The notes under the pieces were generated by a model, which worked only from the letters and a program-made list of their open reading frames with translations, was not told the origin of the DNA and did not search any database. The position numbers were made by a program, and so were the translations under genes. DNA of 64,000 bases from a virus: the IMG/VR virus record IMGVR_UViG_3300037264_005839, one strand, 5' to 3'. Below, one piece after another: positions 3,452-53,838 of the stretch (position 1 is its first letter; each line of letters starts with the position of its first letter).

Positions 3452-4699
3452 ATGGCCTTTCCGCCCATCCCTCCTCTGCCGCAGCTTCCATGGTCGCTGC
3501 CGTTTAATTTCACGATCCCGCCGTCCCACATCCTCACGTTGCCGGACGCCTCTGACGAATTTTGTGCGGAGTGCATCTCTTGCTTCCTCGACTGCCTCGT
3601 GACCGAGTGTGTGGGTCGGGCCGGCTGCGACTGGGTCATCATCCTCAACCGCAAGGTCTACTTCCTCAAGTGGCGAGACGTGACGCCACGGCCGCCGTGG
3701 ACACAACAGGTCTGGGACATCTTCAAGGTGCTCCCGCCGAACTGTGGGTGTCCTAGTGCGCCCGTGAGCTTGGGTTGGCAGTGGTGCTGGGCCGATGTCA
3801 TCAAGACCTTGCGCTACGACATCTTCCTGCACTGGCAGAACGGGGACATCTCTGGGAGCGGGCAGACGGTCGTGGCCATCGGAACGAACGCCTTCCAGTC
3901 CGCCACGGTCGGCATCCCACAGATTGGTCCCGTCCTCTACCTCGACGCAGCGGACTCGAGCTCCATCACGCTCAACGCTGGTTTCGTTGAGGCCTGGTCC
4001 GACAAGAGTACCTACTTCAACAATGCCGTGCAGGCGACGCCAGCCAACCGTCCCACGGTAGCCGCGGCATCTCTCAATGGACTCGACACGCTCCGCTTCG
4101 ATGCTGCGTTCGCGCAGTTCCTCGACGTGCCCACACTCAAGAAGCGCGCCGACTGGCATCTGTTCGTCGTGGGGCGCTTTTTCACGAACGCCGCGTGGCC
4201 TCGCGGCACCTTCTTTTCAGCGACCGGCTTTGATGCCACGTTCGGCGGCATCGAAGGCAAGGTGTATCAGGACGCGACCTTCCAACCGACAGGCACCCCC
4301 TTCACCTTCCTGAATCCGAACGACGTGCCCATGGTCGGCACGAGCTTGAGCTCGGGGACGTTCGGGATCTGGGAGTACCGCGAGAGCATCTCGGGCGACG
4401 GCACAATCAGTATCGGAGTGAATGCCTTCGATCAGCAGGTGTTCTCTGGGAACACGGCCGACGACTTCTGGGACCCGACACGGCAGACTTTCGGTGAGCC
4501 AATCCCTCTACCGGGGGCCGTGGGACGCTCGAACTGGGGAATCAACCCGCTCAGGATGTTCGACTATCTCGATGGGAACGTGGGTCAGCTCCTCCTCTAC
4601 CCGAGGGTGCTCTCCGAAGGAGAACGTGTCCAAGTGCTCAACGTGTTGCGGGCCAAGTGGGGCCTGGGCGCTCCCCTTCCTTTCCCACCCAACCCCTAG
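3452..4699 (+). CDS. hypothetical protein, C-terminal beta-sandwich (LamG/ConA-like?) region
   Basis: 415-aa ORF; good GC3; no catalytic motif recognised. Confidence 0.55.
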   Translation: MAFPPIPPLPQLPWSLPFNFTIPPSHILTLPDASDEFCAECISCFLDCLVTECVGRAGCDWVIILNRKVYFLKWRDVTPRPPWTQQVWDIFKVLPPNCGCPSAPVSLGWQWCWADVIKTLRYDIFLHWQNGDISGSGQTVVAIGTNAFQSATVGIPQIGPVLYLDAADSSSITLNAGFVEAWSDKSTYFNNAVQATPANRPTVAAASLNGLDTLRFDAAFAQFLDVPTLKKRADWHLFVVGRFFTNAAWPRGTFFSATGFDATFGGIEGKVYQDATFQPTGTPFTFLNPNDVPMVGTSLSSGTFGIWEYRESISGDGTISIGVNAFDQQVFSGNTADDFWDPTRQTFGEPIPLPGAVGRSNWGINPLRMFDYLDGNVGQLLLYPRVLSEGERVQVLNVLRAKWGLGAPLPFPPNP

Positions 4700-7292: not shown

Positions 7293-8699
7293 ATGAGCTT
7301 CAAGTACATAGTCGAGGCCGTCTCGCCGAATCACTTCGTGCTCCCGAAGACGGGAGACATGCGGTGCCACGTGGACGCGTTCCTGAGCCAGTCGCTCTAC
7401 GAGCAGACGGACGAGGGGCTGTGGCAACAGGCCGTGGACTCTGCCTCGTACGACGGGGTGCTCGGCGTCTACCTGATGCCCGACACGCACCTCGGCTACG
7501 GCATCCCGGTCGGGGGTGTCGTGGTCACCGACAACACGATCATCCAGAGCGGGAGTGGCTACGACATCTCGTGCGGCGTTGTCCAGATGCGCGTGCCGAA
7601 GTTGCACGCCTCGGACGTTGCAGACTGGGACAAGCGCGAGCGGTGGGTCCGTGAGGTCGAGAAGCGCGTCGCTACGGGCCTCGGCAACGACCGACCGGAA
7701 CTCGCCAAGCGGATCAAGCACCGCCAAGTCGAAGATGTGCTCCGATTCGGCGCCAAGGCGCTTGGTGTCTCGGCGGATCTCTGCGAGCGCCAGTACATCG
7801 AGATCCCCGAGGACATCGACCTGACGAAGATCGAGAAGGCGCACGAGAAGTGCATCCACCAGCTCGGAAGTGTCGGAGGAGGCAATCACTTCATCGAGAT
7901 GCAGGTGGACCGTGACGAGGGCTCCGTGTGGGTGATGATCCACTGCGGGTCTCGGGGCTACGGTTGGCAGACCGCGAACCACTTTTTCCACGAAGGGGCT
8001 GCCCTCCGGGGTCTTCCAAAGAACCGACGCGAACAGTCGCACCTCTACGCGGACGAGCCCCTCGGCAAAGAATACTGGGCACATCACAACAGCGCGGCGA
8101 ACTTCGCCGTGGCGAACCGGCACACTATCGTCGAAGGCGTCCAGGAGGCACTCCGAGAGATCTATGGGACGGGGGGCGAGGTCTACTACGAGATCAGCCA
8201 CAACCTCGTGCAGCAGGAGACGCTCGTGCTCCCCGATGGCACGACCAAGAAGGGCTTCGTGCATCGCAAGGGCGCGACGCGTGCCTTCCCGGCCGGACAC
8301 CCGGATCTCCGAGGCACGAAGTGGGAAGGTACGGGCCACCCGTGCCTGATCCCGGGCTCGATGTTGAGCGGGGCCGCGATCTTGTTCCCGAAGGCCGGTG
8401 CCTACGCGTCGGGGTGCTCAGTCAACCACGGGAGCGGTCGCATGCTCGGACGCGCGGCGGCGAAGCGCGAACTCGGCGAGATGCAGGGGGACATCGACGA
8501 CGAGATGCGGACCATCGAGCGTGTGTTCGACGGGGTCCCCATCATAGGCATCGTCGGGAACACCGCGAAGACGCCGCTCGACGAGTGCGGCATGGTCTAC
8601 AAGGATCTCGACGCCGTGCTCGACGTGCTGGTTCAGGAGGGCATCGCCGAGATCGCGCACCGCATGTACCCCGTCGCCAACATTAAAGGAACCGACTGA
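7293..8699 (+). CDS. rtcB: RNA 3'-phosphate/5'-OH ligase RtcB
   Basis: 468 aa; GAGGAAA RBS; blocks GGGNHFIEMQ, HCGSRGYG, SVNHGSGR match RtcB family signatures. Confidence 0.9.
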   Translation: MSFKYIVEAVSPNHFVLPKTGDMRCHVDAFLSQSLYEQTDEGLWQQAVDSASYDGVLGVYLMPDTHLGYGIPVGGVVVTDNTIIQSGSGYDISCGVVQMRVPKLHASDVADWDKRERWVREVEKRVATGLGNDRPELAKRIKHRQVEDVLRFGAKALGVSADLCERQYIEIPEDIDLTKIEKAHEKCIHQLGSVGGGNHFIEMQVDRDEGSVWVMIHCGSRGYGWQTANHFFHEGAALRGLPKNRREQSHLYADEPLGKEYWAHHNSAANFAVANRHTIVEGVQEALREIYGTGGEVYYEISHNLVQQETLVLPDGTTKKGFVHRKGATRAFPAGHPDLRGTKWEGTGHPCLIPGSMLSGAAILFPKAGAYASGCSVNHGSGRMLGRAAAKRELGEMQGDIDDEMRTIERVFDGVPIIGIVGNTAKTPLDECGMVYKDLDAVLDVLVQEGIAEIAHRMYPVANIKGTD

Positions 8700-9931: not shown

Positions 9932-10639
9932 ATGAGCCGCGTCGAAGAAGACGGGTCGCAGTACCCAGAGGGACCCGTGGATTTGGTGCACGTGGGGCCC
10001 CCAGGAGAGCCTCTCTCCTCGTTCCTGATGCTCTATCACTACGCGGGGGGCATCTTCCCTCTGGGGATGCAACACGAGCGGCATCTGTGGTGGTCCCTTG
10101 AGCCGCGGGCCGTTCTCCAGACGAACCAAGTCAAGGTGAACCGGACACTCCGCAAGGTGATCCGTCGAGGCGACTATGTGGTCCGGGCCGACACGGCCTT
10201 CGATGCCGTCGTGGAACTGTGCCGTCTCACCCGTCAGACGGATGATGGGCCGGGATCGTGGATCACCGACGAGTATGTGCGCGTCTTCAGGACGCTGCAC
10301 AGGCTCGGACACGCCCACAGCATTGAGACTTGGCGGGGGGATCAACTGGCCGGTGGCCTTTTCGGGGTTGCCATGGGCCAAATGTTCTATGGCTGCTCGA
10401 TGTTCCGGCTCCAGCCGAACGCCTCCAAAGTGGCCTTGGTGGCGCTTGCACGGCAGTTGGATGCTTGGGGGTTCCCCCTCGTCGATTGCCAGATCCACAA
10501 TCCTCACTTGGGCCGCATGGGCGCACGCCTCATCCCTCGCATGCGCTTCCACGAGGTCGTGCGGAGCCTTGTACGTGGAAAACGCAGGGTTGGCTCTTGG
10601 GCCGATCAATTCCAAGCGCCGGGCGCCGCATCGTTTTGA
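9932..10639 (+). CDS. aat: leucyl/phenylalanyl-tRNA--protein transferase
   Basis: 235 aa; conserved L/F-transferase blocks WWSLEPRAVL, DTAFDAVVELC, GSWITDEYVRVFRTLHRLGHAHSIETWRGDQLAGGLFGVAMGQMFYGCSMF, DCQIHNPHLGRMGARLIPR. Confidence 0.8.
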   Translation: MSRVEEDGSQYPEGPVDLVHVGPPGEPLSSFLMLYHYAGGIFPLGMQHERHLWWSLEPRAVLQTNQVKVNRTLRKVIRRGDYVVRADTAFDAVVELCRLTRQTDDGPGSWITDEYVRVFRTLHRLGHAHSIETWRGDQLAGGLFGVAMGQMFYGCSMFRLQPNASKVALVALARQLDAWGFPLVDCQIHNPHLGRMGARLIPRMRFHEVVRSLVRGKRRVGSWADQFQAPGAASF

Positions 10640-15318: not shown

Positions 15319-16614
15319 ATGAGTCGGCGACGCGTTGGGACCTTCCAGATGCTGTGGGACTGTTCCTGCGGCACCGGCCCCTTGCTGGGCATCGACCATC
15401 GGCACTGCCCTTCCTGTGGGCGCCCACAGGACCCCCTGCGTCGGTACTTCCCGGATCAGAGGGATGCGGTTCCGGCCCCCGAGTGGGTGGTCGGCAGCGG
15501 TGCTGACCTCTACTGCCCGTACTGCTCCACGGCCAACGTGGCCCAAGCCACCTTCTGTGTGGGTTGTGGGGGACCCATGGACGGCTCCAAGGAGGTCGAG
15601 CGTCGGGAGGCCAACCACGGGACCTCGGCCGAGACGATCCAAGACGCCCTCTCTGAGGCTCGCCAGGAGGCCCAGGAACGGCGCGAGGCCGTGGCAGAGG
15701 CCCAGGCCCCAGACGCGCAGCGGGCCCGGGAGAGGGCTCGTGCAGCCGATCAGGCAACCCCTCGTGAGAGCACGCAGGTGAGGGTGGAATCCCCGCGTAA
15801 ACCCCGCGCTCCGCATCCAAAAATGGCGGCCTTGAGGCGCCACTGGGATCACCTCCGACGACCGGCGATGGTCGGGATGGGGGTGCTCGGTTTGCTGGTG
15901 CTCCTGTGGGCCATCTTCGCGTGGGAGAAGACGATCACCGCCGAGGTTGAGCACCGCTCGTGGGAGCGCTCGCAGGAGATCGAGCGTTTCGTACAACTCT
16001 CTGACTCGTCGTGGTGCGACGACCGACCTGGAGATGCCTACGATGTTGATGAGAGTCGTCGACAACGAGGCACGAGGACAGTCATTGACTGTCGAGACTG
16101 CGACTGCCACACAGAGCAAGTCAAGGTTGGCGAGAACTGTTACGAGGCGAACTGCAGGACCGTCCGCACGGACAATGGCAACGGATCGTTCGACGTGACT
16201 GAAGTGTGCGACCGCAGGTGCGATCCCGTTCACGAAGACCGGCAGATCTGCAAGGACCGGACACACGAAGAGTCCGTCTACGACGAATGGTGCTCGTACA
16301 GGATGGACCGATGGCGACCCCACCGCACGGCCTCGGAAGAGGGCAACTTCTCGCGTGCCCCGGCGTGGCCGGAGCTCGATCTGCGGACGTGCGGCAGGAT
16401 CGAGTTCGGGTGCGAACGACCGGGAGCCAGGAAAGAGAACTACGTCGTCAGTTTCCGCGACGTGCAGGATGACGAGCACTACGAGTGCTCCTACCCGCAG
16501 TCGGCGTGGACTCGATACGAAGAAGGAAGTTTGTGGAAGGCAACGGTGAAGCGTCTCGGTGGCCGCTTCCAATGTGCCTCGCTCGTTGCCATGGCTTCGG
16601 AGACGGAGATCTGA
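15319..16614 (+). CDS. membrane protein with N-terminal zinc ribbons and Cys-rich extracytoplasmic domain
   Basis: CPSCG, CPYCS, CVGCG, then TM segment VGMGVLGLLVLLWAIFAW, then many Cys; TATAAG 7 nt upstream of ATG (leaderless-type). Confidence 0.6.
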   Translation: MSRRRVGTFQMLWDCSCGTGPLLGIDHRHCPSCGRPQDPLRRYFPDQRDAVPAPEWVVGSGADLYCPYCSTANVAQATFCVGCGGPMDGSKEVERREANHGTSAETIQDALSEARQEAQERREAVAEAQAPDAQRARERARAADQATPRESTQVRVESPRKPRAPHPKMAALRRHWDHLRRPAMVGMGVLGLLVLLWAIFAWEKTITAEVEHRSWERSQEIERFVQLSDSSWCDDRPGDAYDVDESRRQRGTRTVIDCRDCDCHTEQVKVGENCYEANCRTVRTDNGNGSFDVTEVCDRRCDPVHEDRQICKDRTHEESVYDEWCSYRMDRWRPHRTASEEGNFSRAPAWPELDLRTCGRIEFGCERPGARKENYVVSFRDVQDDEHYECSYPQSAWTRYEEGSLWKATVKRLGGRFQCASLVAMASETEI

Positions 16615-16633
16615 TCATGGGAGAGAACGGAAG

Positions 16634-17500
16634 ATGACCGACAAGACCTCACTTGGGGACAGGATGAAACACTACGAGGAGGTGTCCTGCACCATCCTCA
16701 CGCCTCGCATGCCGATGATCATCCGCATCGACGGACGTGCCTTCCACACGTACACGAAGAAACTGCATCACGGGATGCGGGAAGAGTCTCCGTGGAATCC
16801 CGTGATGCGCGATGCGATGACGGCTGCCGCCCGCGGTCTCATGCGTGAGATCAGCGGGGCCAAGATTGCATACCTCCAGTCTGACGAGATCAGCGTCCTC
16901 GTCACCGACTACGACAAACTGTCTTCGCAGGCTTGGTTCGACAAGGCCGCGCAGAAGGTGTGCTCGGTGGGGGCGTCCATCGCTACGATGGAGTTCAACA
17001 ACAACATCCGCGACTACATCGACTCCGGGCTCCCCGCCGAGATGTTCCCGACGACTGCGACGTTCGACGCGCGCGTCTTCGTGGTGCCGAGGGAGGATGT
17101 CTGCAACTATTTCATCTGGCGGCAGCGGGATGCAGAGAAGAACTCGATCTCGATGCTGGCGCAGACGCATTTCTCCCCCAAGCAGCTCCATGGCAAGGAC
17201 GGCAACGCAAAGCAGGACATGTTGATGCTCGAGAAGGGCGTCAACTGGAACGACCTGCCGACGTGGCAGAAACGCGGGTGGTGCGTGGACCGCAAGACGA
17301 TCACCATGACCGTGGCCGAACTCGAGATGGCGGGCGGCAAAGTGACACGGAATCCCGGCGTTGTGCTCGACCCGAACACCGAGGTCACACGCACCGTGGT
17401 TGAACCTGACTGGGAGATCCCGATCTTCACGAAGGACCGCGGCTACATCGATCAGTTCGTGAACGTGGACGAGGCGCCCTTGAAGGGGGAGGAGCCCTGA
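16634..17500 (+). CDS. Thg1-like protein (tRNA-His guanylyltransferase family 3'-5' polymerase)
   Basis: RMKHYE, RIDGRAFH, QSDEISV, FDARVF, NYFIWRQRDAEKNSI, WQKRGWC blocks. Confidence 0.8.
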   Translation: MTDKTSLGDRMKHYEEVSCTILTPRMPMIIRIDGRAFHTYTKKLHHGMREESPWNPVMRDAMTAAARGLMREISGAKIAYLQSDEISVLVTDYDKLSSQAWFDKAAQKVCSVGASIATMEFNNNIRDYIDSGLPAEMFPTTATFDARVFVVPREDVCNYFIWRQRDAEKNSISMLAQTHFSPKQLHGKDGNAKQDMLMLEKGVNWNDLPTWQKRGWCVDRKTITMTVAELEMAGGKVTRNPGVVLDPNTEVTRTVVEPDWEIPIFTKDRGYIDQFVNVDEAPLKGEEP

Positions 17501-18252
17501 TGCGCTTGGTCATCACCAGCGACACGCATGGTTTCCATCGCGGATGGGGCGTCTACGACAAGGCGATGCCTGAGGGGGACGTCCTCGTCCATGCGGGAGA
17601 CTTCTCTCGAGACCATGGCTCGTGGCAGGACGTGGTGCGCTTCGCCGCGTGGATGGAGAAGCAGCCACACCGGCACAAAATCCTGTGCCCCGGCAACCAC
17701 GATGTGGGGATCCACGAGAACCGGAACAAAGCGGCGCTGCTGTTCACGGCGCACGGAATTCATCTCCTCGGCATCCAGACCGACCGCGTCGAGATCGACG
17801 GGATCACCTTCGCAGGAGCTCCTTGGATGCCAATCAGTGGATGGGTTCCCCCTTGGGGGTTCGAGACGCCCGATTACGAGCGAGAGAGGCTGTGGGCTCG
17901 GGTAGAACCCTCGGATGTCCTCGTGACCCACTCGCCTCCCATGGGAATCCTCGATCAGACGGCCAAAGGCGAGCACATCGGGTGCCCACTGCTCCAGCGC
18001 CACGTCCTCGGGCGCCTCCGTCCACGTCTCCACATCTTTGGACACGTCCACGAAGCGCGAGGCATCCACGAGGAAGAGGGCATCGTCTTCATGAACGCCT
18101 GCTCTAACACACGGGGCACTTTTGTCCGCGACGACATCAAGGGGATCACGCACATGACCATGGGCATCCACGACCCGATGGTCTACAACCTTGAGCGTGA
18201 TCCTACCGGCCCTGCAGAAGTTGCCTATGGAGATCATAAGGTTGAGAGGTGA
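17500..18252 (+). CDS. calcineurin-like metallophosphoesterase
   Basis: TGATG overlap; ITSDTHG, HAGDFS, CPGNHD, THSPP, GHVHE motifs. Confidence 0.8.
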   Translation: MRLVITSDTHGFHRGWGVYDKAMPEGDVLVHAGDFSRDHGSWQDVVRFAAWMEKQPHRHKILCPGNHDVGIHENRNKAALLFTAHGIHLLGIQTDRVEIDGITFAGAPWMPISGWVPPWGFETPDYERERLWARVEPSDVLVTHSPPMGILDQTAKGEHIGCPLLQRHVLGRLRPRLHIFGHVHEARGIHEEEGIVFMNACSNTRGTFVRDDIKGITHMTMGIHDPMVYNLERDPTGPAEVAYGDHKVER

Positions 18253-28017: not shown

Positions 28018-29856
28018 ATGGCACTCACACTCCTCTTCATCGTTGGGTTGCTGCTTTTGGCAGCCCCCATTCTCCTGCCAATCTTTGGCATCAACATCCC
28101 CCTCTCCGCCACCTTCGCCATGCTCGGTGTGGGCGGCTCTCTGGTCGGCCTCATCGGCCTCCTGTGGATCTTCAAGAAGCTGTACGTCAAGACGCGCGCC
28201 GACTTGGCGTTCGTGCGCACGGGACGAGGGTTCAAGATCATCAAGGATGGGGGCAGCATCGTGATCCCGTTCCTGCACGAGATCATCTGGGTCTCGCTGC
28301 GTACTTTCGAGGTGAAGGTGGAGCGCCGAGACAAGGATGCTCTCCTGACGAAGGACAAACTGCGGGCAAACATCGCCGCCGAGTTCTACGTGAAGGTCAA
28401 GCCGGACGACGACGCCATCGGAGCGGCGAGCCGTTCTTTCGGTGAGGAGATGAACGCACATGGCATCCTCCGCATCGTCGAGAAAAAGTTGATCAGCAAC
28501 CTGCGCACCGTTGCCGCGCAGAAGACTCTTGAGGAGCTGAACTCGGACCGCGCAGCTTTCATGGAGCAGGTGACCCACCTCTGCGCGCAGGATCTGATCC
28601 ACAACGGCCTCACACTGGAGTCGGCGGCCATCTCGTCGCTGGACCAGACGAGCAGTGAACACCTGGACCCGAAGAATGTCTTCGACGCCCAAGGCCTCAG
28701 GACCATCGCCGACATCACGGAGGCGAACATGACCCACACAAACAAGCTCCAACGCAACGGCGAGGAGGCGCGCAAGCGCCAAGACGTCGAAACGCGCAAG
28801 GCCATGCTCTCGCTCGAGCAGGAGCGGGAAAAGGCCGAGGCCGAGCAGATAGCCGAGATCAAGCGCATCAAGGCTGAACAGGGGCGACTGGCCCGCGAGA
28901 AGGAGATCGAGGCTACGAAGGCGGTCGAGCTCGCAGAGGTTGAGAAGCACGAGCGTATCGAGGTTGCCAAGAAGGCACAGGAGCAGGCTGTCGAGGTCGC
29001 CGCGCAGGCGAAGGAGCAAGCCGTCGAGGTTGCCACCAGGGCCAAGGAAGCCGCCATCTCCACGGCCGAGAAGGAGCGCGCCGAGAAACAGGCCGAGCAG
29101 GCCGACGCCGAGCGACTGCGTCAGGAGAAGACGGAGGCAATCAAGACCGTCACCATGGTGCAGGAGGCCGAGCGCAAGAAGCAGCAGGCGATCATCGAAG
29201 CGCAGGCTGAGGCCGAGCGCAAGCTGATCTCCGCGCAGAAAGGTGCCGACGCCGAGGCGTACAAGGTGGAGAAAGACGCCGCGGCCCGGAAGGCGGCTGC
29301 TGATGCCGACGCTGAGGCCACGCGCAAGAAGGCCGAGGCGGACAAAGACGCCGAAATCGCCCGCGCAGAGGGCGAGAAGGCGAGGGCCATGGTGCCTATT
29401 GAGGTCAAGAAGGCCGAGCTCGCCATCGAAAAAAGCCGGATCGAGGAGGTCGTCAAGCCGGAACTCGAGGCTCGCGATGCTCACGGCCAGTCGGCGCAGG
29501 AGTTTGAGCTGGCGAAGCTGTATATCGAGGAGCACGCCAAGGTGGAGATCGAGCGCGCGAAGGCCAGCGTCGAGATCTACCGCAAGGTCGAGGTGCAGGC
29601 TTTCACCACGCTCGAGCAGATGGCTGCCGTGCAGCAGCAAGTCGTCCGGGGTCACGGGCTCGCCGGCATGATCAATGGATTTCGCGAGAATCTCGACGTT
29701 GACTCGGCATCTGAGGCAGTCGGAGCCATCAAGAGCATCATCGAAGCTATTCGCGGGTCGCAGCCCAAGTCGGGATCGAACGGAGCACCTGAACCCAAAA
29801 CGGTCGCTCCGAGCGTTTCTCCAGCACCCGCCGCGAAGCCGACGCCCGCAGGCTGA
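28018..29856 (+). CDS. flotillin-like SPFH/band-7 protein
   Basis: N-terminal TM, SPFH core, long E/A/K-rich coiled coil (YqiK/FloT architecture). Confidence 0.8.
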   Translation: MALTLLFIVGLLLLAAPILLPIFGINIPLSATFAMLGVGGSLVGLIGLLWIFKKLYVKTRADLAFVRTGRGFKIIKDGGSIVIPFLHEIIWVSLRTFEVKVERRDKDALLTKDKLRANIAAEFYVKVKPDDDAIGAASRSFGEEMNAHGILRIVEKKLISNLRTVAAQKTLEELNSDRAAFMEQVTHLCAQDLIHNGLTLESAAISSLDQTSSEHLDPKNVFDAQGLRTIADITEANMTHTNKLQRNGEEARKRQDVETRKAMLSLEQEREKAEAEQIAEIKRIKAEQGRLAREKEIEATKAVELAEVEKHERIEVAKKAQEQAVEVAAQAKEQAVEVATRAKEAAISTAEKERAEKQAEQADAERLRQEKTEAIKTVTMVQEAERKKQQAIIEAQAEAERKLISAQKGADAEAYKVEKDAAARKAAADADAEATRKKAEADKDAEIARAEGEKARAMVPIEVKKAELAIEKSRIEEVVKPELEARDAHGQSAQEFELAKLYIEEHAKVEIERAKASVEIYRKVEVQAFTTLEQMAAVQQQVVRGHGLAGMINGFRENLDVDSASEAVGAIKSIIEAIRGSQPKSGSNGAPEPKTVAPSVSPAPAAKPTPAG

Positions 29857-46514: not shown

Positions 46515-47300
46515 CTATGACCCTTCGGGGCGGTGATCCTCCCCGGAATTGTTGATTTGGGGTGTGCAGCCCTCCACGAGTTGATCCCATCGATGTTCGA
46601 TCAGGTCGCTGTAGAGACGCGCATCCAGGCCGTAGGACCCCAGGGAGATCATGTCGTTGACCTCGACAAGGAGCGTACGCCCGTCCCGAACCCGACCAAA
46701 GTCCAGCGCACAGGCCCGTGGCATGTCGTCGTAGCCGGCGAACGCATGCAGGGCTTGGTGCACGACATCCGCATCCGGGAAGAGAAAGGGATCACCACGG
46801 TAGTGCCCGATGCCAACAGCTTGCCCGTCACGGCAGTAGACGCGCCACTCACTGAGGAACTCGACATACTCGACGCAATACACAAGCGTCGTCGCATCCA
46901 AATGGCTCGTCACGATCAGGTCGCCGAAGCGCGAGACCACTTGGCCAAGGAACAACTTGTGGTGCACCGGCTTGATGAACACGGGAGGACCAGGCTCGTT
47001 GTACCGACGACGGATCACGCTGAGCACATCGACATCGACTCTCCGTCCCATGAAGGGGCGGAGCCGGGACGGGTAATCGAGATGCGTCGGCGTGCAACCG
47101 AGGCGCGCCAAGTAATCTCGCACGATGTTCACGTCGCCGAAGACGAGACAGTCTGGAGTTGCCGGGAGTTCCTCGATCTGCGTCGGATTCAGGGTGCACA
47201 CGTCACGCCCCCGTGCTCGGAACCCGAGGAAGGCCGCGCACAGGGCCGCATTCGGAAATTGCCCGTCCTCGTCGATCTGAATGACTACGCGGTCGATCAC
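46515..47300 (-). CDS. ATP-grasp fold enzyme
   Basis: VFIKP..., EWRVYCRDG, TLLVEVN typical of ATP-grasp ligases. Confidence 0.6.
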   Translation of the reverse strand: MIDRVVIQIDEDGQFPNAALCAAFLGFRARGRDVCTLNPTQIEELPATPDCLVFGDVNIVRDYLARLGCTPTHLDYPSRLRPFMGRRVDVDVLSVIRRRYNEPGPPVFIKPVHHKLFLGQVVSRFGDLIVTSHLDATTLVYCVEYVEFLSEWRVYCRDGQAVGIGHYRGDPFLFPDADVVHQALHAFAGYDDMPRACALDFGRVRDGRTLLVEVNDMISLGSYGLDARLYSDLIEHRWDQLVEGCTPQINNSGEDHRPEGS

Positions 47301-48348: not shown

Positions 48349-49206
48349 CTAGCGCGTCAGGAAATCCACGAGCTCAGGTAACACGACGCCGGCTCGGCCG
48401 CGCAGCCACACCCCTTGCTGCCGTGCAAGGTTAGCGAGGGGGCTGTCCTCAGGGTTGACATCGATGACAATCGCGTCTCGGACCACCGCGTAGTTCGTCA
48501 AGATCTGCGCGATTGGGACGACGGCACTGCACCCCACGGTGAGGACGAGATCGGCCTCCTGTGCGAAGTTGTGGGCCTCCTCGCTCCGGTAGAGCTCCTG
48601 CGAGTACATCTCATCGAACAGGAGCACGTGCGGCCGCATGATGTATCCGCAGTCGGGACAGGTCAGGTCCTCGGGAAACCGGGCGTTCTCTGGAATGTCC
48701 GCGAATTTCGGAACGCCCTGGTTGTTACGTAACCAGCACTCGTCGCTGCATCGCATGCGCTTGTCCCCGTGGAGTTCGATGCACTTCTCGGGTGTGTTGC
48801 CGGCTTCAAGGTGCAGCCCATCGATGTTCTGCGTGACGAGCAGGAACTGACCCTCCGTGGAGTGCATGTAATTCTCGAGGTAGGCGATGGCTAGGTGCGC
48901 CGGGTTGGGCTCCTTACCGCGCATCGTTCCAGCGAATCGGTCAAGGTAGTACTCCCAGAGTTTGTCGATCTGGTGCTCAACCGTGGTACTGCGCAGGAAC
49001 TCAACCGGATTCCAATCGTCGGAATCGTAGATCCCGGTACCGTCGACAGAGCGGAATGTTGGGATACCACTCTCGGCCGAGATGCCAGCTCCGGTGATGA
49101 CGAGCACCTTCCCTTCGTGGACAGCACGACGGGCCCGGCTCCACACGCGGGACGGGATCGAAGCAAGGGCCTCCACTTCTTGTTCGTGCAAGGAAGTTGT
49201 CGTCAT
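48349..49206 (-). CDS. Sir2-family NAD-dependent deacylase (sirtuin) with zinc ribbon
   Basis: GAGISAESGIPTFR, CPDCG...C, catalytic-His region; start ATG 49206 overlaps upstream stop. Confidence 0.8.
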   Translation of the reverse strand: MTTTSLHEQEVEALASIPSRVWSRARRAVHEGKVLVITGAGISAESGIPTFRSVDGTGIYDSDDWNPVEFLRSTTVEHQIDKLWEYYLDRFAGTMRGKEPNPAHLAIAYLENYMHSTEGQFLLVTQNIDGLHLEAGNTPEKCIELHGDKRMRCSDECWLRNNQGVPKFADIPENARFPEDLTCPDCGYIMRPHVLLFDEMYSQELYRSEEAHNFAQEADLVLTVGCSAVVPIAQILTNYAVVRDAIVIDVNPEDSPLANLARQQGVWLRGRAGVVLPELVDFLTR

Positions 49207-49436
49207 GAAATCTCTGGTTCCTTCCACCCGGACTGGCTGCGGATCTCGATAATTTGTTCCCACGAGAGCTTCTCAGGGTTGAGCGCCTCGTCGGGATCTA
49301 TCCACCCCTGACGCCGGGCATACCCCGTCGAGAAGACGGCTCGCGCCATCCCGATGCGCTGGACCTCGGCCGCCTCGTCCTCAGATCCGAGGTGAACGAA
49401 GACGCCCTTGCCGAAGGGGTTTTTGATGGTTGCCAT
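49203..49436 (-). CDS. hypothetical small protein
   Basis: ATG preceded by GGGGGTATAACGCTGGAGGC. Confidence 0.45.
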   Translation of the reverse strand: MATIKNPFGKGVFVHLGSEDEAAEVQRIGMARAVFSTGYARRQGWIDPDEALNPEKLSWEQIIEIRSQSGWKEPEIS

Positions 49437-49839: not shown

Positions 49840-50231
49840 GCGAACTTCGGCATGAGAGGGTCCTCGTTGCGCTGCTCGCCGTTCACGATGATCTCACGGT
49901 AGCGCTTGAGGAGGGAGACCTCGATCTCCACCACGCGCTTGGTCTCTTGGCTCACGAACTTCGCCAAGAGAGCCTCTTCCTGTTGCTTGATGCGTCGGTC
50001 AAGCCACGCCGCCAAACCTTGGCGCTCCGTCTTCCGCATGTCCTTCTGCTCCTGGAGCTCGCTCCGCAGTTTGTCGTTGGATCGGTCGCTCCAGCGCAAC
50101 CTGTTCCGTTCCTTCGCAAGGGCCTCCCTTGTTTGGTTGAGTTCGTCCTCGAGCGTCTTGATCTGACCCTCAAGGGACTCCACGATGTCGAGAGCTTTTT
50201 GGCTCAGGTCTGCGTTGTCCAAGATGTCCAT
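49836..50231 (-). CDS. coiled-coil protein
   Basis: 131 aa, heptad-rich; ATG preceded by GAGTAGAATGGAGGC. Confidence 0.55.
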   Translation of the reverse strand: MDILDNADLSQKALDIVESLEGQIKTLEDELNQTREALAKERNRLRWSDRSNDKLRSELQEQKDMRKTERQGLAAWLDRRIKQQEEALLAKFVSQETKRVVEIEVSLLKRYREIIVNGEQRNEDPLMPKFA

Positions 50232-50265
50232 GCCTCCATTCTACTCCACGTGGTACGGTGGGAAG

Positions 50266-50796
50266 ATGAGCAACGTGAGAGAGCATGCAGCCAGGGCCTT
50301 CGCAGTCCAGGCTCACGGGGATCAACGGTACGGATCGAAGCCCTATGTCGCGCATCTGGATGACGTGGCTGCCCTCGTGGAGGAGATCGCCGAAATTCAC
50401 GAACGAGAGATCCTCCTCGCCGTCGCATATCTTCACGACGTGCTCGAGGACACCGATGCCACACAAGAACAGATCGACGAGCTGTTCGGTCCAGTTGTGG
50501 CCCAGGCCGTCGCGGAGATCACCGATCCCCCGGGTGAGACACGAAGCGAGCGCAAGAAGATCTTGCACTGGCGCCTTGAGGAGCTGAACGCGAAGACTCC
50601 GGCTGGACACGCGGCGCTGATCGTGAAGGCGGCCGACCGTCTCGCCAACGTGCGTGCCTGCATCGTCGAGGGGAAGGAGGATCTGATCAAGATGTACGTG
50701 AGCGAGCACCTCGAGTTCCGCAAGGGCGCGCACAGGCGAGGCATGTGCGACGCATGGTGGGCCGAACTGGATGCCCTCCACCACGCAAGGCGTTAG
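50266..50796 (+). CDS. HD-domain phosphohydrolase (RelA/SpoT-hydrolase-like)
   Basis: HGDQRYGSKPYVAHL..., LHDVLEDT; ATG preceded by GGTACGGTGGGAAG. Confidence 0.7.
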   Translation: MSNVREHAARAFAVQAHGDQRYGSKPYVAHLDDVAALVEEIAEIHEREILLAVAYLHDVLEDTDATQEQIDELFGPVVAQAVAEITDPPGETRSERKKILHWRLEELNAKTPAGHAALIVKAADRLANVRACIVEGKEDLIKMYVSEHLEFRKGAHRRGMCDAWWAELDALHHARR

Positions 50797-51565: not shown

Positions 51566-52213
51566 ATGAAGGAAGCCACCATGTCGAAGCACCACGTCCT
51601 ACGCCGCATCCTCGCGTGCGCCCTCACGGCCGCGATCCCCACCACGCTCGTCCTCCAGTCGGCAGGATGCCTGTGCGGCGTGGACAAGCACGACAAACTC
51701 ACGGCGACGTACCTGACCTGTGACGAAGAGTGGGCGAACATCGAGGCGCAGTACCAGCGCCGCATGGACCTCATCCCGAACCTCGTGAAGGTCGTGAAGG
51801 CATCCGCAGCTCACGAGAAGGACACGCTCGAGGCCGTGATGAAGGCGCGCGCCGAGGCGTCGAAAGTCACTCTCGACGCGAAGTCCCTCTCCGATCCCGA
51901 AGCGATGGCGAAGTTCCAGGCGGCGCAAGGCGAGGTGTCACAGGCACTCGGCAAACTGATGATGGTCTCGGAGGCATACCCGGACCTCAAAGCCAACGAG
52001 CAGTTCGCCACGCTGATGGAGCAGATCGAGGGCACGGAAAACCGCATCCTCGTCGCCCGCAAGAAGTACAACGCCGCCGTCAAGGACTACAACTTCGAGG
52101 TGATGAACTCGGGCGGCAAGGTCTTCAACGCGATCACCGGCGAGATGTTCACGGCCCGCGTCATGTTCACGGCCCAAGCGGGTGCCAACCAGGCGCCGGA
52201 AGTGGACCTGTAG
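51566..52213 (+). CDS. LemA-family protein
   Basis: N-terminal TM; EEWANIEAQYQRRMDLIPNLV...; start could be the second ATG at 51581 (AAGGAAG RBS). Confidence 0.75.
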   Translation: MKEATMSKHHVLRRILACALTAAIPTTLVLQSAGCLCGVDKHDKLTATYLTCDEEWANIEAQYQRRMDLIPNLVKVVKASAAHEKDTLEAVMKARAEASKVTLDAKSLSDPEAMAKFQAAQGEVSQALGKLMMVSEAYPDLKANEQFATLMEQIEGTENRILVARKKYNAAVKDYNFEVMNSGGKVFNAITGEMFTARVMFTAQAGANQAPEVDL

Positions 52214-52214
52214 G

Positions 52215-53006
52215 ATGCAGGCACTCTCGCGCGGGCTCCTCGCGGCAATCGTCGCGCTCGTAGTTTTTCTGCTGAGTTCCGTCGCGTCGGCGGAGTTCAA
52301 GGTGCCACCTCGGCCCGATGGTCCCGTCCACGACGGTGCCGACGTGCTGACGGGCGCACAGGAACGCGCACTTGAGATCAAGCTGGAGAAGTTCCGCGAC
52401 GCCCAAGGCCCTTCCGTCGTCGTGGCATTCATCCCGTCACTCGACGGCGAGCCCATCAACGAGGCCGCGTACGAGATCTTCTCGGCATGGGGCATCGGCA
52501 AGAAGAAACAGAATGATGGTGTGCTCCTCCTGATATCGGTCGCGGAGGCGAAAAAGGCAGGGCCCGGCGCCACGAAGTGCGGCTGTGCGAGGATCGAGGT
52601 CGGCGAGTACATCGAGGGCACCCTCACGGACGCCCGATCTCTCAAGATCCTCAAGGACGATGTGCTCGCGGCCGTCGTGAGCGGCAAGTTCGATGAGGGC
52701 GCCACCAAGGCCACGGACAGCATCATCGGTGTCCTCTCAGGCGACCCAGAGGCCCTTTCGGCGACCGACCCGGGGGATGGGGGCTCCGGCCTCCCCGACC
52801 TGCCCTGGTGGCTCTGGGTGGCCCTCGTGCTGCTCGGCCTCTACGTCCTCTACATCGCCGCCAAGCACGGCCTTCTGGAGGCATTCCTCAGCGGTGGAGG
52901 GGGATCGAGCGGGGGATCCTGGGGTGGGGGATCCAGCGGAGGGGGATCGAGTGGTGGCTCGTCCTTCGGAGGGGGATCGAGCGGAGGCGGGGGCGCCAGC
53001 GTCTGA
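52215..53006 (+). CDS. TPM-domain (TLP18.3/Psb32-like) protein with Gly/Ser-rich tail
   Basis: signal peptide, TPM core DGADVLTG...VVVAFIPSLDG...GVLLLISV, TM, GGGSSGG repeats. Confidence 0.75.
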   Translation: MQALSRGLLAAIVALVVFLLSSVASAEFKVPPRPDGPVHDGADVLTGAQERALEIKLEKFRDAQGPSVVVAFIPSLDGEPINEAAYEIFSAWGIGKKKQNDGVLLLISVAEAKKAGPGATKCGCARIEVGEYIEGTLTDARSLKILKDDVLAAVVSGKFDEGATKATDSIIGVLSGDPEALSATDPGDGGSGLPDLPWWLWVALVLLGLYVLYIAAKHGLLEAFLSGGGGSSGGSWGGGSSGGGSSGGSSFGGGSSGGGGASV

Positions 53007-53028
53007 GATCCTCGCCGCCGAGGGACCG

Positions 53029-53550
53029 CTAGCTCGCGGCCTCCTGGCGTGTTCCCTTCTGCGAACGAGGCCCGAGCGTCATGGACATGTTGCGTCCGTC
53101 CATGCGCGATGCCTGGACGACACTGCACACGTCGGAGAGTTCTCGGCACACGCGGTCAAGGATCGCCTGTCCTGTCTCCGGGTGCACCATCTGGCGCCCT
53201 CTGAACTGCACGAGCAGCTTGACCCGGTGGCCTTCCTCGAGGAAGTCCCGGGTGTGCTTCGCCTTGAAGGTGAAGTCGTGATCGCCGATCTGAGGTCTGA
53301 ACTTCACCTCCTTGAGCTCCTGAGCAGTACGGTTCTTCTTGGAGTCGCGGGCCAGCTTGGCCTGCTCGTACTTGTACTTGCCGTAGTCGATGATTTTACA
53401 AACCGGAGGTTCCGCGTTCGGCGATACCTCGACGAGGTTGAGACCGAGAGCTTGGGCGCGCCGCTGAGCATCGCGGGTGTCCAAGATCCCGAGTTGTTCG
53501 CCCTCCGGTCCGATCACGCGTACTTGCGGTACGCGGATGCGATGGTCCAT
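53029..53550 (-). CDS. infC: translation initiation factor IF-3
   Basis: 173 aa; N- and C-domain blocks (VRVIGPEGEQLGI, EVSPNAEPPVCKIIDYGKYKYE, KEVKFRPQIGDHDF...); TATAAT about 65 nt upstream. Confidence 0.85.
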   Translation of the reverse strand: MDHRIRVPQVRVIGPEGEQLGILDTRDAQRRAQALGLNLVEVSPNAEPPVCKIIDYGKYKYEQAKLARDSKKNRTAQELKEVKFRPQIGDHDFTFKAKHTRDFLEEGHRVKLLVQFRGRQMVHPETGQAILDRVCRELSDVCSVVQASRMDGRNMSMTLGPRSQKGTRQEAAS

Positions 53551-53619
53551 GCGAGGCCCCTTCTGGGGCTGAGGCTTCCTGCCATTTCCGTGTGCCAGAG
53601 TTCCTTCTCCTTGTTTCCC

Positions 53620-53625
53620 ATTATA
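53620..53625 (-). promoter_or_regulatory. candidate -10 element (TATAAT) for infC
   Basis: perfect TATAAT on the minus strand in the 90-nt gap upstream of IF-3; no good -35 seen. Confidence 0.35.
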
Positions 53626-53640
53626 CGCATTCGGTCGTCA

Positions 53641-53838
53641 TCAGCTCGAAGGGTCCACGGACCACTTGCCTGTGTCCATGCCCCCTTGATCGTCAAAATC
53701 CTCGGGGCCATCGTCGTCCTCGGGGGCCTCCTTGCGTCGAATCCCCGATCCTCCACACGCATCGCATGATTCGCGGAGGTGGAAAAGGACGGTCCATCCT
53801 CGACCTTTGCAACGGAGGCATGGCTCCTCGTCTGACAT
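53641..53838 (-). CDS. small acidic zinc-ribbon protein
   Basis: CLRCKG...CDACGG; ATG directly after the tail-fibre gene stop. Confidence 0.45.
   Translation of the reverse strand: MSDEEPCLRCKGRGWTVLFHLRESCDACGGSGIRRKEAPEDDDGPEDFDDQGGMDTGKWSVDPSS

Follow-up and report, generated by a model that had tools for sequence, protein, structure and literature searches.

Phage-encoded initiation factor IF-3 is already known. IF1 and IF3 are among the translation genes of huge phages (Al-Shayeb et al. 2020, PMC7162821), and a possible role of phage IF3 in aiding phage translation or rescuing ribosomes has been mentioned (Iyer et al. 2021, PMC7824862). In GenBank, IF-3 is annotated in Agrobacterium phage Atu_ph07 and Sinorhizobium phage Phosso, further matches lie in metagenomic phages of 460-735 kb (LR7565xx), and IMG/VR yielded 93 confirmed IF-3 loci, with contigs of 100-600 kb accounting for many of them. 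In cellular bacteria, infC starts at AUU or AUC and is autorepressed, since IF-3 rejects non-canonical start codons including CUG (PMC5499595). Here, we analyse an IF-3 gene in a 64,000-nucleotide stretch of viral DNA (IMG/VR record IMGVR_UViG_3300037264_005839; this whole stretch is referred to as the window), which adds one lineage to the known class.

We consider it fairly probable that this gene encodes a complete IF-3 belonging to a phage lineage and is not a host infC, that it would be initiated at CUG and repressed by IF-3 itself, and that it may keep IF-3 topped up in the infected cell in a self-limiting way. With infC of Escherichia coli and Thermus thermophilus, the window gene shares the two domains, a Lys-rich linker, a basic N-terminal tail, and key residues, and it would resemble cellular infC in its probable non-canonical start behind a good Shine-Dalgarno sequence, a feature of autorepression (PMC5499595). 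However, it lacks the infC-rpmI-rplT operon, has CUG instead of AUU, AUC, or AUA as its probable start, carries an E134Q substitution, and is located on a phage-like element. The known IF-3s of huge phages are likewise full-length and encoded in very large phage-type genomes, without ribosomal-protein neighbours and among genes for translation and tRNA repair. In contrast to the window IF-3, which is closer to the Myxococcota type and to which they are 30-47% identical, they mostly start at ATG, TTG, or GTG, whereas the window lineage uniformly has CTG. The neighbourhood differs as well, with the lineage showing the arrangement of giant protein, Laminin_G_3 protein, Cys-rich protein, IF-3, and LemA/TPM.

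The IF-3 gene and its start codon

The original prediction for this locus, which was made from the sequence alone, had described a full-length IF-3 of 173 amino acids (aa) with both domains, and profile searches bore this out. IF3_N (PF05198) matched residues 2-69 of the 173-aa open reading frame (ORF) with 102.1 bits (cut-off 26.9), and IF3_C (PF00707) matched residues 78-161 with 110.8 bits (cut-off 34.8), both covering almost the whole profile. The NCBIfam infC equivalog TIGR00168, which has a cut-off of 60 bits, scored 200 bits with the 173-aa model and 202.4 bits with the 189-aa model preferred here (see below). A PDB search matched IF3 chains (best E 1e-49), and the protein aligned end to end with T. 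thermophilus 5lmn, E. coli 8jsg, and the IF-3 chain of 5me0. Furthermore, the PHROG phage IF-3 family phrog_9787 was matched over profile positions 7-166 of 168 (E 7.3e-45); the original prediction had given too little weight to the fact that IF-3s of phages form an established family (phrog_9787; PMC7162821; PMC7824862).

In mainly cellular IF3s, 51 columns reach a conservation of at least 80%, and the consensus of the lineage departs from them at just 5 of these. Retained in the window IF-3 are the equivalents of Y75, R99, D106, K110, R131, R133, and R168 (E. coli numbering), which we take to be functional residues for 30S binding or fidelity. The equivalents of R25 and Q33 are kept too, while R66 is replaced by K, the majority residue in bacteria; in E. 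coli, these three residues have been tied to contact with the tRNA elbow and to fidelity (PMC9723500). As judged from its sequence, the window gene is thus a genuine, complete bacterial-type IF-3, and the encoded protein is functional-looking.

An ATG-initiated ORF at 53029-53550 on the minus strand exists as predicted; however, a CTG located in frame 16 codons further upstream (17 codons in the related contigs L173 and L176) is the likelier start. It is found in 9/9 distinct members of the lineage, in every one of which AGGAG or GGAG precedes it by 7-9 nt. By contrast, the codon at the position of the window ATG is ATG in 4 members, TTG in 1, and ACC, ACG, or CGG in the remaining 4 (ACC in L017 and L090, CGG in L020, ACG in L176). 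These four contigs also have no in-frame ATG, GTG, or TTG upstream, meaning that 4 of the 9 members are devoid of any such codon that would preserve the N-terminal domain, and the CTG of L020 has a stop codon two codons 5' of it. Given that CTG makes up 24% of the Leu codons in the window, its occurrence in all 9 members as a plain Leu codon would have a probability of about 3e-6 if the members were independent, and of 0.0035 for 4 independent clades. The 16 residues that follow the CTG form a basic tail with (E/G/D)PR at its end. With this extension included, residues 6-180 of the 189-aa query align to residues 4-179 of E. coli IF3, N-terminal tail included, and the TIGR00168 match spans profile positions 3-169, beginning at position 3 instead of 9 and thereby gaining six positions. 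From these comparisons, translation most likely starts at CUG 53598 and yields a 189-aa protein, and the gene model of the original prediction is probably 16 codons short. A CUG start would lead standard gene callers to mis-start or truncate such IF-3 genes and would bias catalogues of phage IF-3; the N-termini of many lineage IF3s were shortened by gene callers (e.g., P0014, P0016, and P0017).

Start codons were compared by tabulating, with one procedure, the best Shine-Dalgarno-linked start of 78 cellular loci from GTDB (within L189-L268), 81 phage loci from IMG/VR (within L002-L089), and the 9 lineage loci. The cellular loci gave ATC 42 times, ATA 14 times, ATT 8 times, CTG 3 times, TTG 5 times, and GTG once, with 5 loci having no Shine-Dalgarno-linked candidate, and for 31 loci no canonical start was possible. 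ATC, ATA, ATT, or CTG is therefore the best such start in about 86% of cellular infC, which agrees with the published rule of AUU/AUC initiation and autorepression. The IMG/VR phage loci mostly had ATG, TTG, or GTG, and a canonical start was impossible for only 1 of them, which suggests that most phage IF-3 copies may have escaped IF-3 autorepression. The lineage loci had CTG in all 9 cases, 4 of them without a possible canonical start. Genome-wide CUG initiation was also considered and rejected: elsewhere in the window, CTG behind Shine-Dalgarno sites shows no enrichment, its frequency being 0.95 of expectation.

An alternative explanation is that ATG 53550 is the sole real start and the CTG extension a relic, in which case constitutively produced IF-3 would raise the dose of the factor, as appears to be the case for most IF-3s of huge phages. 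The ATG has a weak Shine-Dalgarno sequence of its own, AAGG(GG) at 8-nt spacing, the extension of the window protein is not as basic as its counterparts in the relatives, and starts are canonical in most of the 81 IMG/VR phage IF-3 genes as well as in phage Phosso, where a GTG follows AAGGAG. However, the AAGGAG before the CTG is stronger than the Shine-Dalgarno sequence before the ATG, the length and frame of the extension (16-17 codons) are constant in 9/9 members, and L176, despite having ACG at the ATG position, keeps both the CTG and its Shine-Dalgarno sequence. We therefore regard exclusive use of the ATG as unlikely.

The perfect TATAAT upstream of the gene that was noted in the original prediction is present, 69 nt upstream of the ATG; however, it has no -35 partner and its count is at chance level. 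It is the single copy in 64 kb, where 1.05 copies are expected, and at least one copy was found in 58 of 100 shuffles. A sigma-70 scan of positions 52000-57200 revealed no promoter on the IF-3 strand, a terminator scan of the same region revealed none where the IF-3 and TPM genes converge, and RNA folding of the leader (53530-53640) gave no significant structure (z = -0.85). Among the relatives, tgcgTATAATggg is kept in L176, just as far from the CTG as in the window, L020 and L090 have TAGAAT at -26 and -48, respectively, and TATAAC is located farther upstream in L173; L017, L174, L018, and L175 have no such -10-like element before the CTG. These comparisons lend weak support to the TATAAT as a -10 element; if it were one, transcription would begin some 15 nt upstream of the CTG, and the Shine-Dalgarno sequence would be part of the transcript.

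Related contigs and the nature of the element

An identical IF-3 protein is recorded on a 66-kb JGI contig and on a Logan contig, and eight other metagenomic contigs carry IF-3s that are 58-79% identical to it and about 150-177 aa long as called. The related contigs include L017 (110 kb), L018/L019 (38 kb), L090 (58 kb), L175 (30 kb), a JGI contig of 109 kb, and L020, which is the IMG/VR viral contig IMGVR_UViG_3300022719_000283 (618,736 bp). L176, whose IF-3 is 76% identical and belongs to the same subclade (A) as that of the window, has a divergent GH25 gene too, whereas L173 and L174 share the neighbourhood to a lesser extent. Common to most relatives is the gene order of giant protein, Laminin_G_3 protein, small Cys-rich protein, and IF-3, followed by a convergent DUF2807/TPM/LemA block and then by HD_4 and Sir2. 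Since this neighbourhood is repeated across related contigs, IF-3 has long been resident there and its position is no boundary artefact. We read IF-3 as a stable, vertically inherited gene of a lineage of very large phage-like genomes, for which related contigs reach 618 kb.

This bears on the possibility, raised and disfavoured in the original prediction, that the gene is the resident host infC, either at a prophage boundary or in a bacterial chromosome. The closest named cellular IF-3s, from metagenome-assembled genomes of Myxococcales/'Deltaproteobacteria', are 56-59% identical to the window protein, and LemA, TPM, and HD proteins are common in bacteria. However, rpmI and rplT, whose presence downstream would have been typical of infC, are absent, with convergent TPM and LemA genes found instead. 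Within 2 kb downstream of IF-3, rplT was detected at 49/76 GTDB loci, 37/48 metagenome loci, and 2/79 IMG/VR loci, compared to 0/10 lineage loci; the cellular controls were taken from scans of metagenome and genome contigs with the lineage alignment, in which the matches listed were at most 58% identical. The GC content is flat over the window (0.59-0.64), without any compositional break, and housekeeping families are missing from the 64 kb. The absence of rpmI/rplT, the uniform GC content, and the neighbourhood shared with relatives, in most of which both flanks including LemA/TPM accompany IF-3, all argue for a non-host context. Thus, the rejection of a host infC stands, and we consider that explanation largely refuted.

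The original prediction had also proposed a phylogeny of this IF-3 versus host infC. In a neighbour-joining tree (195 sequences, 137 columns, 200 bootstraps), the Myxococcota IF-3s form a clade with 94% bootstrap support that excludes the window sequence, which groups instead with P0002-P0005 (small subclade, 66% support). The tree, built from short sequences, does not resolve the deep order. A single-acquisition phylogeny was tried and not retained, as monophyly of the three lineage subclades received 18% support; there was also almost no support for bacteria nesting within the subclades. The nearest named cellular sequences, those of Myxococcota (e.g., P0032, P0039, and P0052), differ further in their length of 219-243 aa and in their long acidic or Pro-rich C-terminal extensions. 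The lineage probably infects a high-GC host, and its nearest cellular IF-3s are those of Myxococcota.

It could also be asked whether the element is a phage at all or rather a giant extrachromosomal element of another kind, plasmid-like or other, that carries IF-3. Neither the window nor the retrieved parts of the related contigs yielded a terminase, portal, or major capsid gene, so that the designation of the element as a phage is based on gene content and on the IMG/VR classification of one syntenic relative. In addition, two large proteins encoded upstream of IF-3 (1013 and 2074 aa) have no PHROG or PDB match, and plasmid-like sequences exceeding 200 kb in length have been reported alongside huge phages (Al-Shayeb et al. 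2020, PMC7162821). However, the syntenic relative L020 is an IMG/VR viral contig, and the window encodes a GH25 endolysin-type protein, several PHROG families without assigned function, and genes for tRNA repair and nucleotide metabolism of the kind typical of huge phages. Moreover, ribosomal and other housekeeping families as well as replication, partition, and conjugation families had no matches in the window, and PLSDB plasmids contained no IF3 at 50% identity or above. Taken as a whole, the gene set of the window is typical of huge phages, and a non-phage element appears rather improbable.

Two further contigs should be mentioned. L091 (ENA contig, 16.8 kb) encodes a different IF-3 (P0031), which is 59% identical to that of the window, starts at ATG, and has a long basic tail at its N-terminus; it is surrounded by numerous small genes without annotation and a ThyX gene. 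This contig appears to represent another phage-like lineage, distinct from the present one, whose IF-3 is of a Myxococcota-like kind. L092 (JGI contig, 3.1 Mb) encodes a bacterial IF-3 (P0045, 56% identical) without rplT downstream, which has TTG with AGGAG where the lineage has CTG, and an ATG 16 codons later, as in the window. P0045 may be a second, non-operonic copy of bacterial IF-3.

Proposed role of a CUG-initiated IF-3

As the non-canonical starts of cellular infC serve autorepression, we infer for the window gene the use of CUG as start codon, autorepression, and a feedback-controlled top-up of IF-3. IF-3 from either host or phage would reject the CUG and thereby repress synthesis of the phage copy. 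Synthesis of the phage IF-3 would thus be low while IF-3 is plentiful and would rise as IF-3 activity per ribosome falls, allowing the phage to keep IF-3 topped up over a long infection with a presumed shutdown of host gene expression. The factor would act beside the RtcB, Thg1-like, and Leu/Phe-tRNA-protein transferase proteins of the window, leaving the rules of start-site selection unchanged. The conservation of a non-canonical CUG points to an IF-3 whose discrimination is intact and is used for control.

Several points weigh against this reading. CUG is rare among bacterial infC starts (3 of the 78 GTDB loci), and we know of no experiment that has shown repression of a CUG-initiated infC by IF-3. 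ATG 53550 is a possible alternative or internal start, from which a canonical 173-aa product could be made that would escape autorepression, and the N-terminal extension is less basic in the window than in the relatives, as mentioned above. Both the Shine-Dalgarno-based assignment of starts and the gene calls follow our own heuristics. Furthermore, the residue equivalent to E134 is E in 97% of the mainly cellular comparison set, the Q being lineage-specific, and the neighbour-joining tree does not settle the deep branching. Finally, the phage hallmark genes named above were missing from the sequences covered.

A different role had been put forward in the original prediction, namely that a phage IF-3 variant with altered specificity retunes start-site selection in favour of phage mRNAs, given many leaderless-looking and GTG-initiated genes in the window. 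It has been suggested that IF1, IF3, S1, and S21 of huge phages redirect host translation (PMC7162821), and the substitution at the otherwise near-invariant E134 position, which is Q in the window (about 53191-53193) and in 82% of lineage sequences, would leave a small opening for an altered function; a literature search on the phenotype of IF-3 E134 mutants found no papers. However, GUG and UUG are already canonical to IF-3, and leaderless mRNAs are disfavoured by it (PMC5499595, PMC9723500), so that extra IF-3 would hurt leaderless messages. The proposed abundance of unusual starts was not borne out either: according to our own gene calls, 72% of window genes start with ATG, 20% with GTG, and 9% with TTG, and Shine-Dalgarno cores precede 44% of first starts compared to 23% of control codons, an about twofold enrichment, with many cistrons tightly packed. 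Moreover, residues contacting the tRNA elbow and the 30S subunit are retained, and in the rest of the window Shine-Dalgarno sites are followed by CTG no more often than expected. With fidelity residues kept and Shine-Dalgarno starts ordinary, retuned start selection seems very improbable.

Returning to a self-limiting top-up, a broader reading can be offered tentatively, and we hold it to be somewhat less probable than the role proposed for the window gene itself, short of an even chance. A huge-phage lineage may have kept or re-invented, with CUG for AUH, the self-limiting start of infC, so that its IF-3 would be a sensor-controlled supply, made only upon a drop in the IF-3 activity of the infected cell, while those of most other huge phages, having changed to ATG, TTG, or GTG, would be made in any case. 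If true, there would be two opposite strategies for viral initiation factors, homeostatic top-up versus override, and the start codon would be a simple genomic marker that separates them. Phage IF-3 genes could then be sorted by start codon into those expected to be under IF-3 feedback and those escaping it, and the idea that phage factors redirect translation would become a testable contrast.

Neighbouring genes and further content of the window

The features of the locus and the genes for translation-related proteins are listed in Table 1. As stated in the original prediction, IF-3 is encoded on the same strand as, and 3' of, the genes for the 1013-aa and 2074-aa proteins. The accompanying description of structural and lysis genes next to IF-3 was only partly upheld: a GH25 gene exists, but at a distance and on the other strand, and the tail-fibre-like label of the 1013-aa protein is weakly supported.

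Table 1. Coordinates of IF-3-related features and selected genes in the window
Feature	Position	Strand	Details
ORF of the original prediction	53029..53550	-	173 aa; ATG start at 53550
Preferred IF-3 gene model	53029..53598	-	189 aa; CUG start 53598-53596, TAG stop 53031-53029
IF3 N-terminal domain	53344..53547	-	Pfam PF05198, E 1.9e-29
IF3 C-terminal domain	53068..53319	-	Pfam PF00707, E 3.2e-32
In-frame CTG, proposed non-canonical start codon	53596..53598	-	Conserved in 9/9 lineage members
Shine-Dalgarno AAGGAG	53607..53612	-	8 nt before CTG
TATAAT, candidate -10 element	53620..53625	-	21 nt 5' of CTG, 69 nt 5' of ATG
Small Cys-rich (CxxC) protein, 65 aa	53641..53838	-	Weak DnaJ_CXXCXGXG match
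Gly-rich 1013-aa protein	53839..56880	-	Laminin_G_3 (ConA-like) domain, Pfam
Giant 2074-aa protein	56953..63177	-	Three FxNPxTGNxVxFxSLPK repeats, two HExTH motifs
GH25 muramidase	63226..63999	+	About 9.7 kb from IF-3, opposite strand
TPM-domain protein	52182..53006	+	Pfam PF04536, E 1.2e-28; convergent with IF-3, 22-nt gap between stop codons
LemA-family protein	51566..52213	+	Pfam PF04011, E 2.5e-48; LemA-TPM module downstream of IF-3
RtcB ligase	7293-8699	+	Pfam
Leu/Phe-tRNA-protein transferase (Aat)	9932-10639	+	Pfam
Thg1-like tRNA-His guanylyltransferase	16559-17500	+	Pfam

A homologue of the 65-aa Cys-rich protein, or a CHP02642-like small protein, is located 5' of IF-3 in L017, L018, L090, and the 109-kb JGI contig. 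Homologues of the 1013-aa protein (37-42% identity) are encoded upstream of IF-3 in L017, L018, and L020; the protein had no match in PHROG, PDB, or GenBank phages, and a scan of IMG/VR gave just short motif-level matches, one of which lies in a tail-spike-like protein that is encoded within a head-tail module on an unrelated viral contig of 60 kb. This lends weak support to a virion role. The 2074-aa protein contains a module of about 45 aa three times (residues 32, 716, and 1677), with the core F[RK]NPxTGNxVxFxSLPK, as well as metalloprotease-like HExTH motifs at residues 507 and 893 and a weak Peptidase_M91 match; no PHROG or PDB match was obtained for it. L017 and L020 encode homologues upstream of IF-3, and in L176 and L175 the equivalent position is taken by giant ORFs (2068 and 2471 aa, respectively). 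The protein is reminiscent of the multi-domain proteins termed 'polyvalent' that occur in phages and conjugative elements.

On the other side of IF-3, the TPM gene is kept in L001, L017, L018, L090, and L175, and LemA in L017, L018, and L090; in most lineage members examined, LemA-TPM, with DUF2807 in the relatives, converges on IF-3. LemA and TPM are usually seen as bacterial membrane-stress genes. The window LemA also matches phrog_1383 ('virion structural protein'; E 1.4e-14). Beyond this module, a RelA/SpoT-type HD_4 protein of 203 aa (50185-50796, plus strand), which is kept near IF-3 in L090, is possibly a small alarmone (ppGpp) hydrolase.

Our codon-usage-based gene call yielded 81 genes in the window, mostly short and arranged in strand-coherent blocks with many tightly packed internal cistrons. 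Only about a quarter of them have Pfam matches, and tRNA and Rfam scans of the whole 64 kb returned no matches. Besides the genes in Table 1, the Pfam families comprise metallophosphoesterases, an AlkB-like oxygenase, endonuclease V, DHFR, NUDIX, R2K ATP-grasp, Sir2, and HD_4. Two candidates for virion proteins did not hold: the PHROG match of 3452-4699 to a 'virion structural protein' reflects a short shared domain, and a 612-aa ORF (28018-29856, plus strand), which has the strongest coding signal of the window and had been considered as a capsid candidate, encodes an SPFH/flotillin-type protein. Over its N-terminal third, it shares 38% identity with an SPFH protein from Sinorhizobium phage Phosso (469 kb), another carrier of an IF-3 gene.

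The genes for an ATP-grasp ligase of the R2K clade and for a Sir2-family protein are close neighbours (46515-47300 and 48349-49263, minus strand); in L174, the two are adjacent, beside a glutamine-synthetase-like gene. R2K enzymes have been proposed to modify translation components (PMC7824862). A metallophosphoesterase gene adjoins the Thg1-like gene of the window, the pair spanning 16559-18252 on the plus strand. Finally, a Thg1 homologue is encoded within about 8 kb of IF-3 at 12 or more unrelated huge-phage loci from IMG/VR (e.g., L003, L015, L022-L027, L029, L032, L034, and L039).

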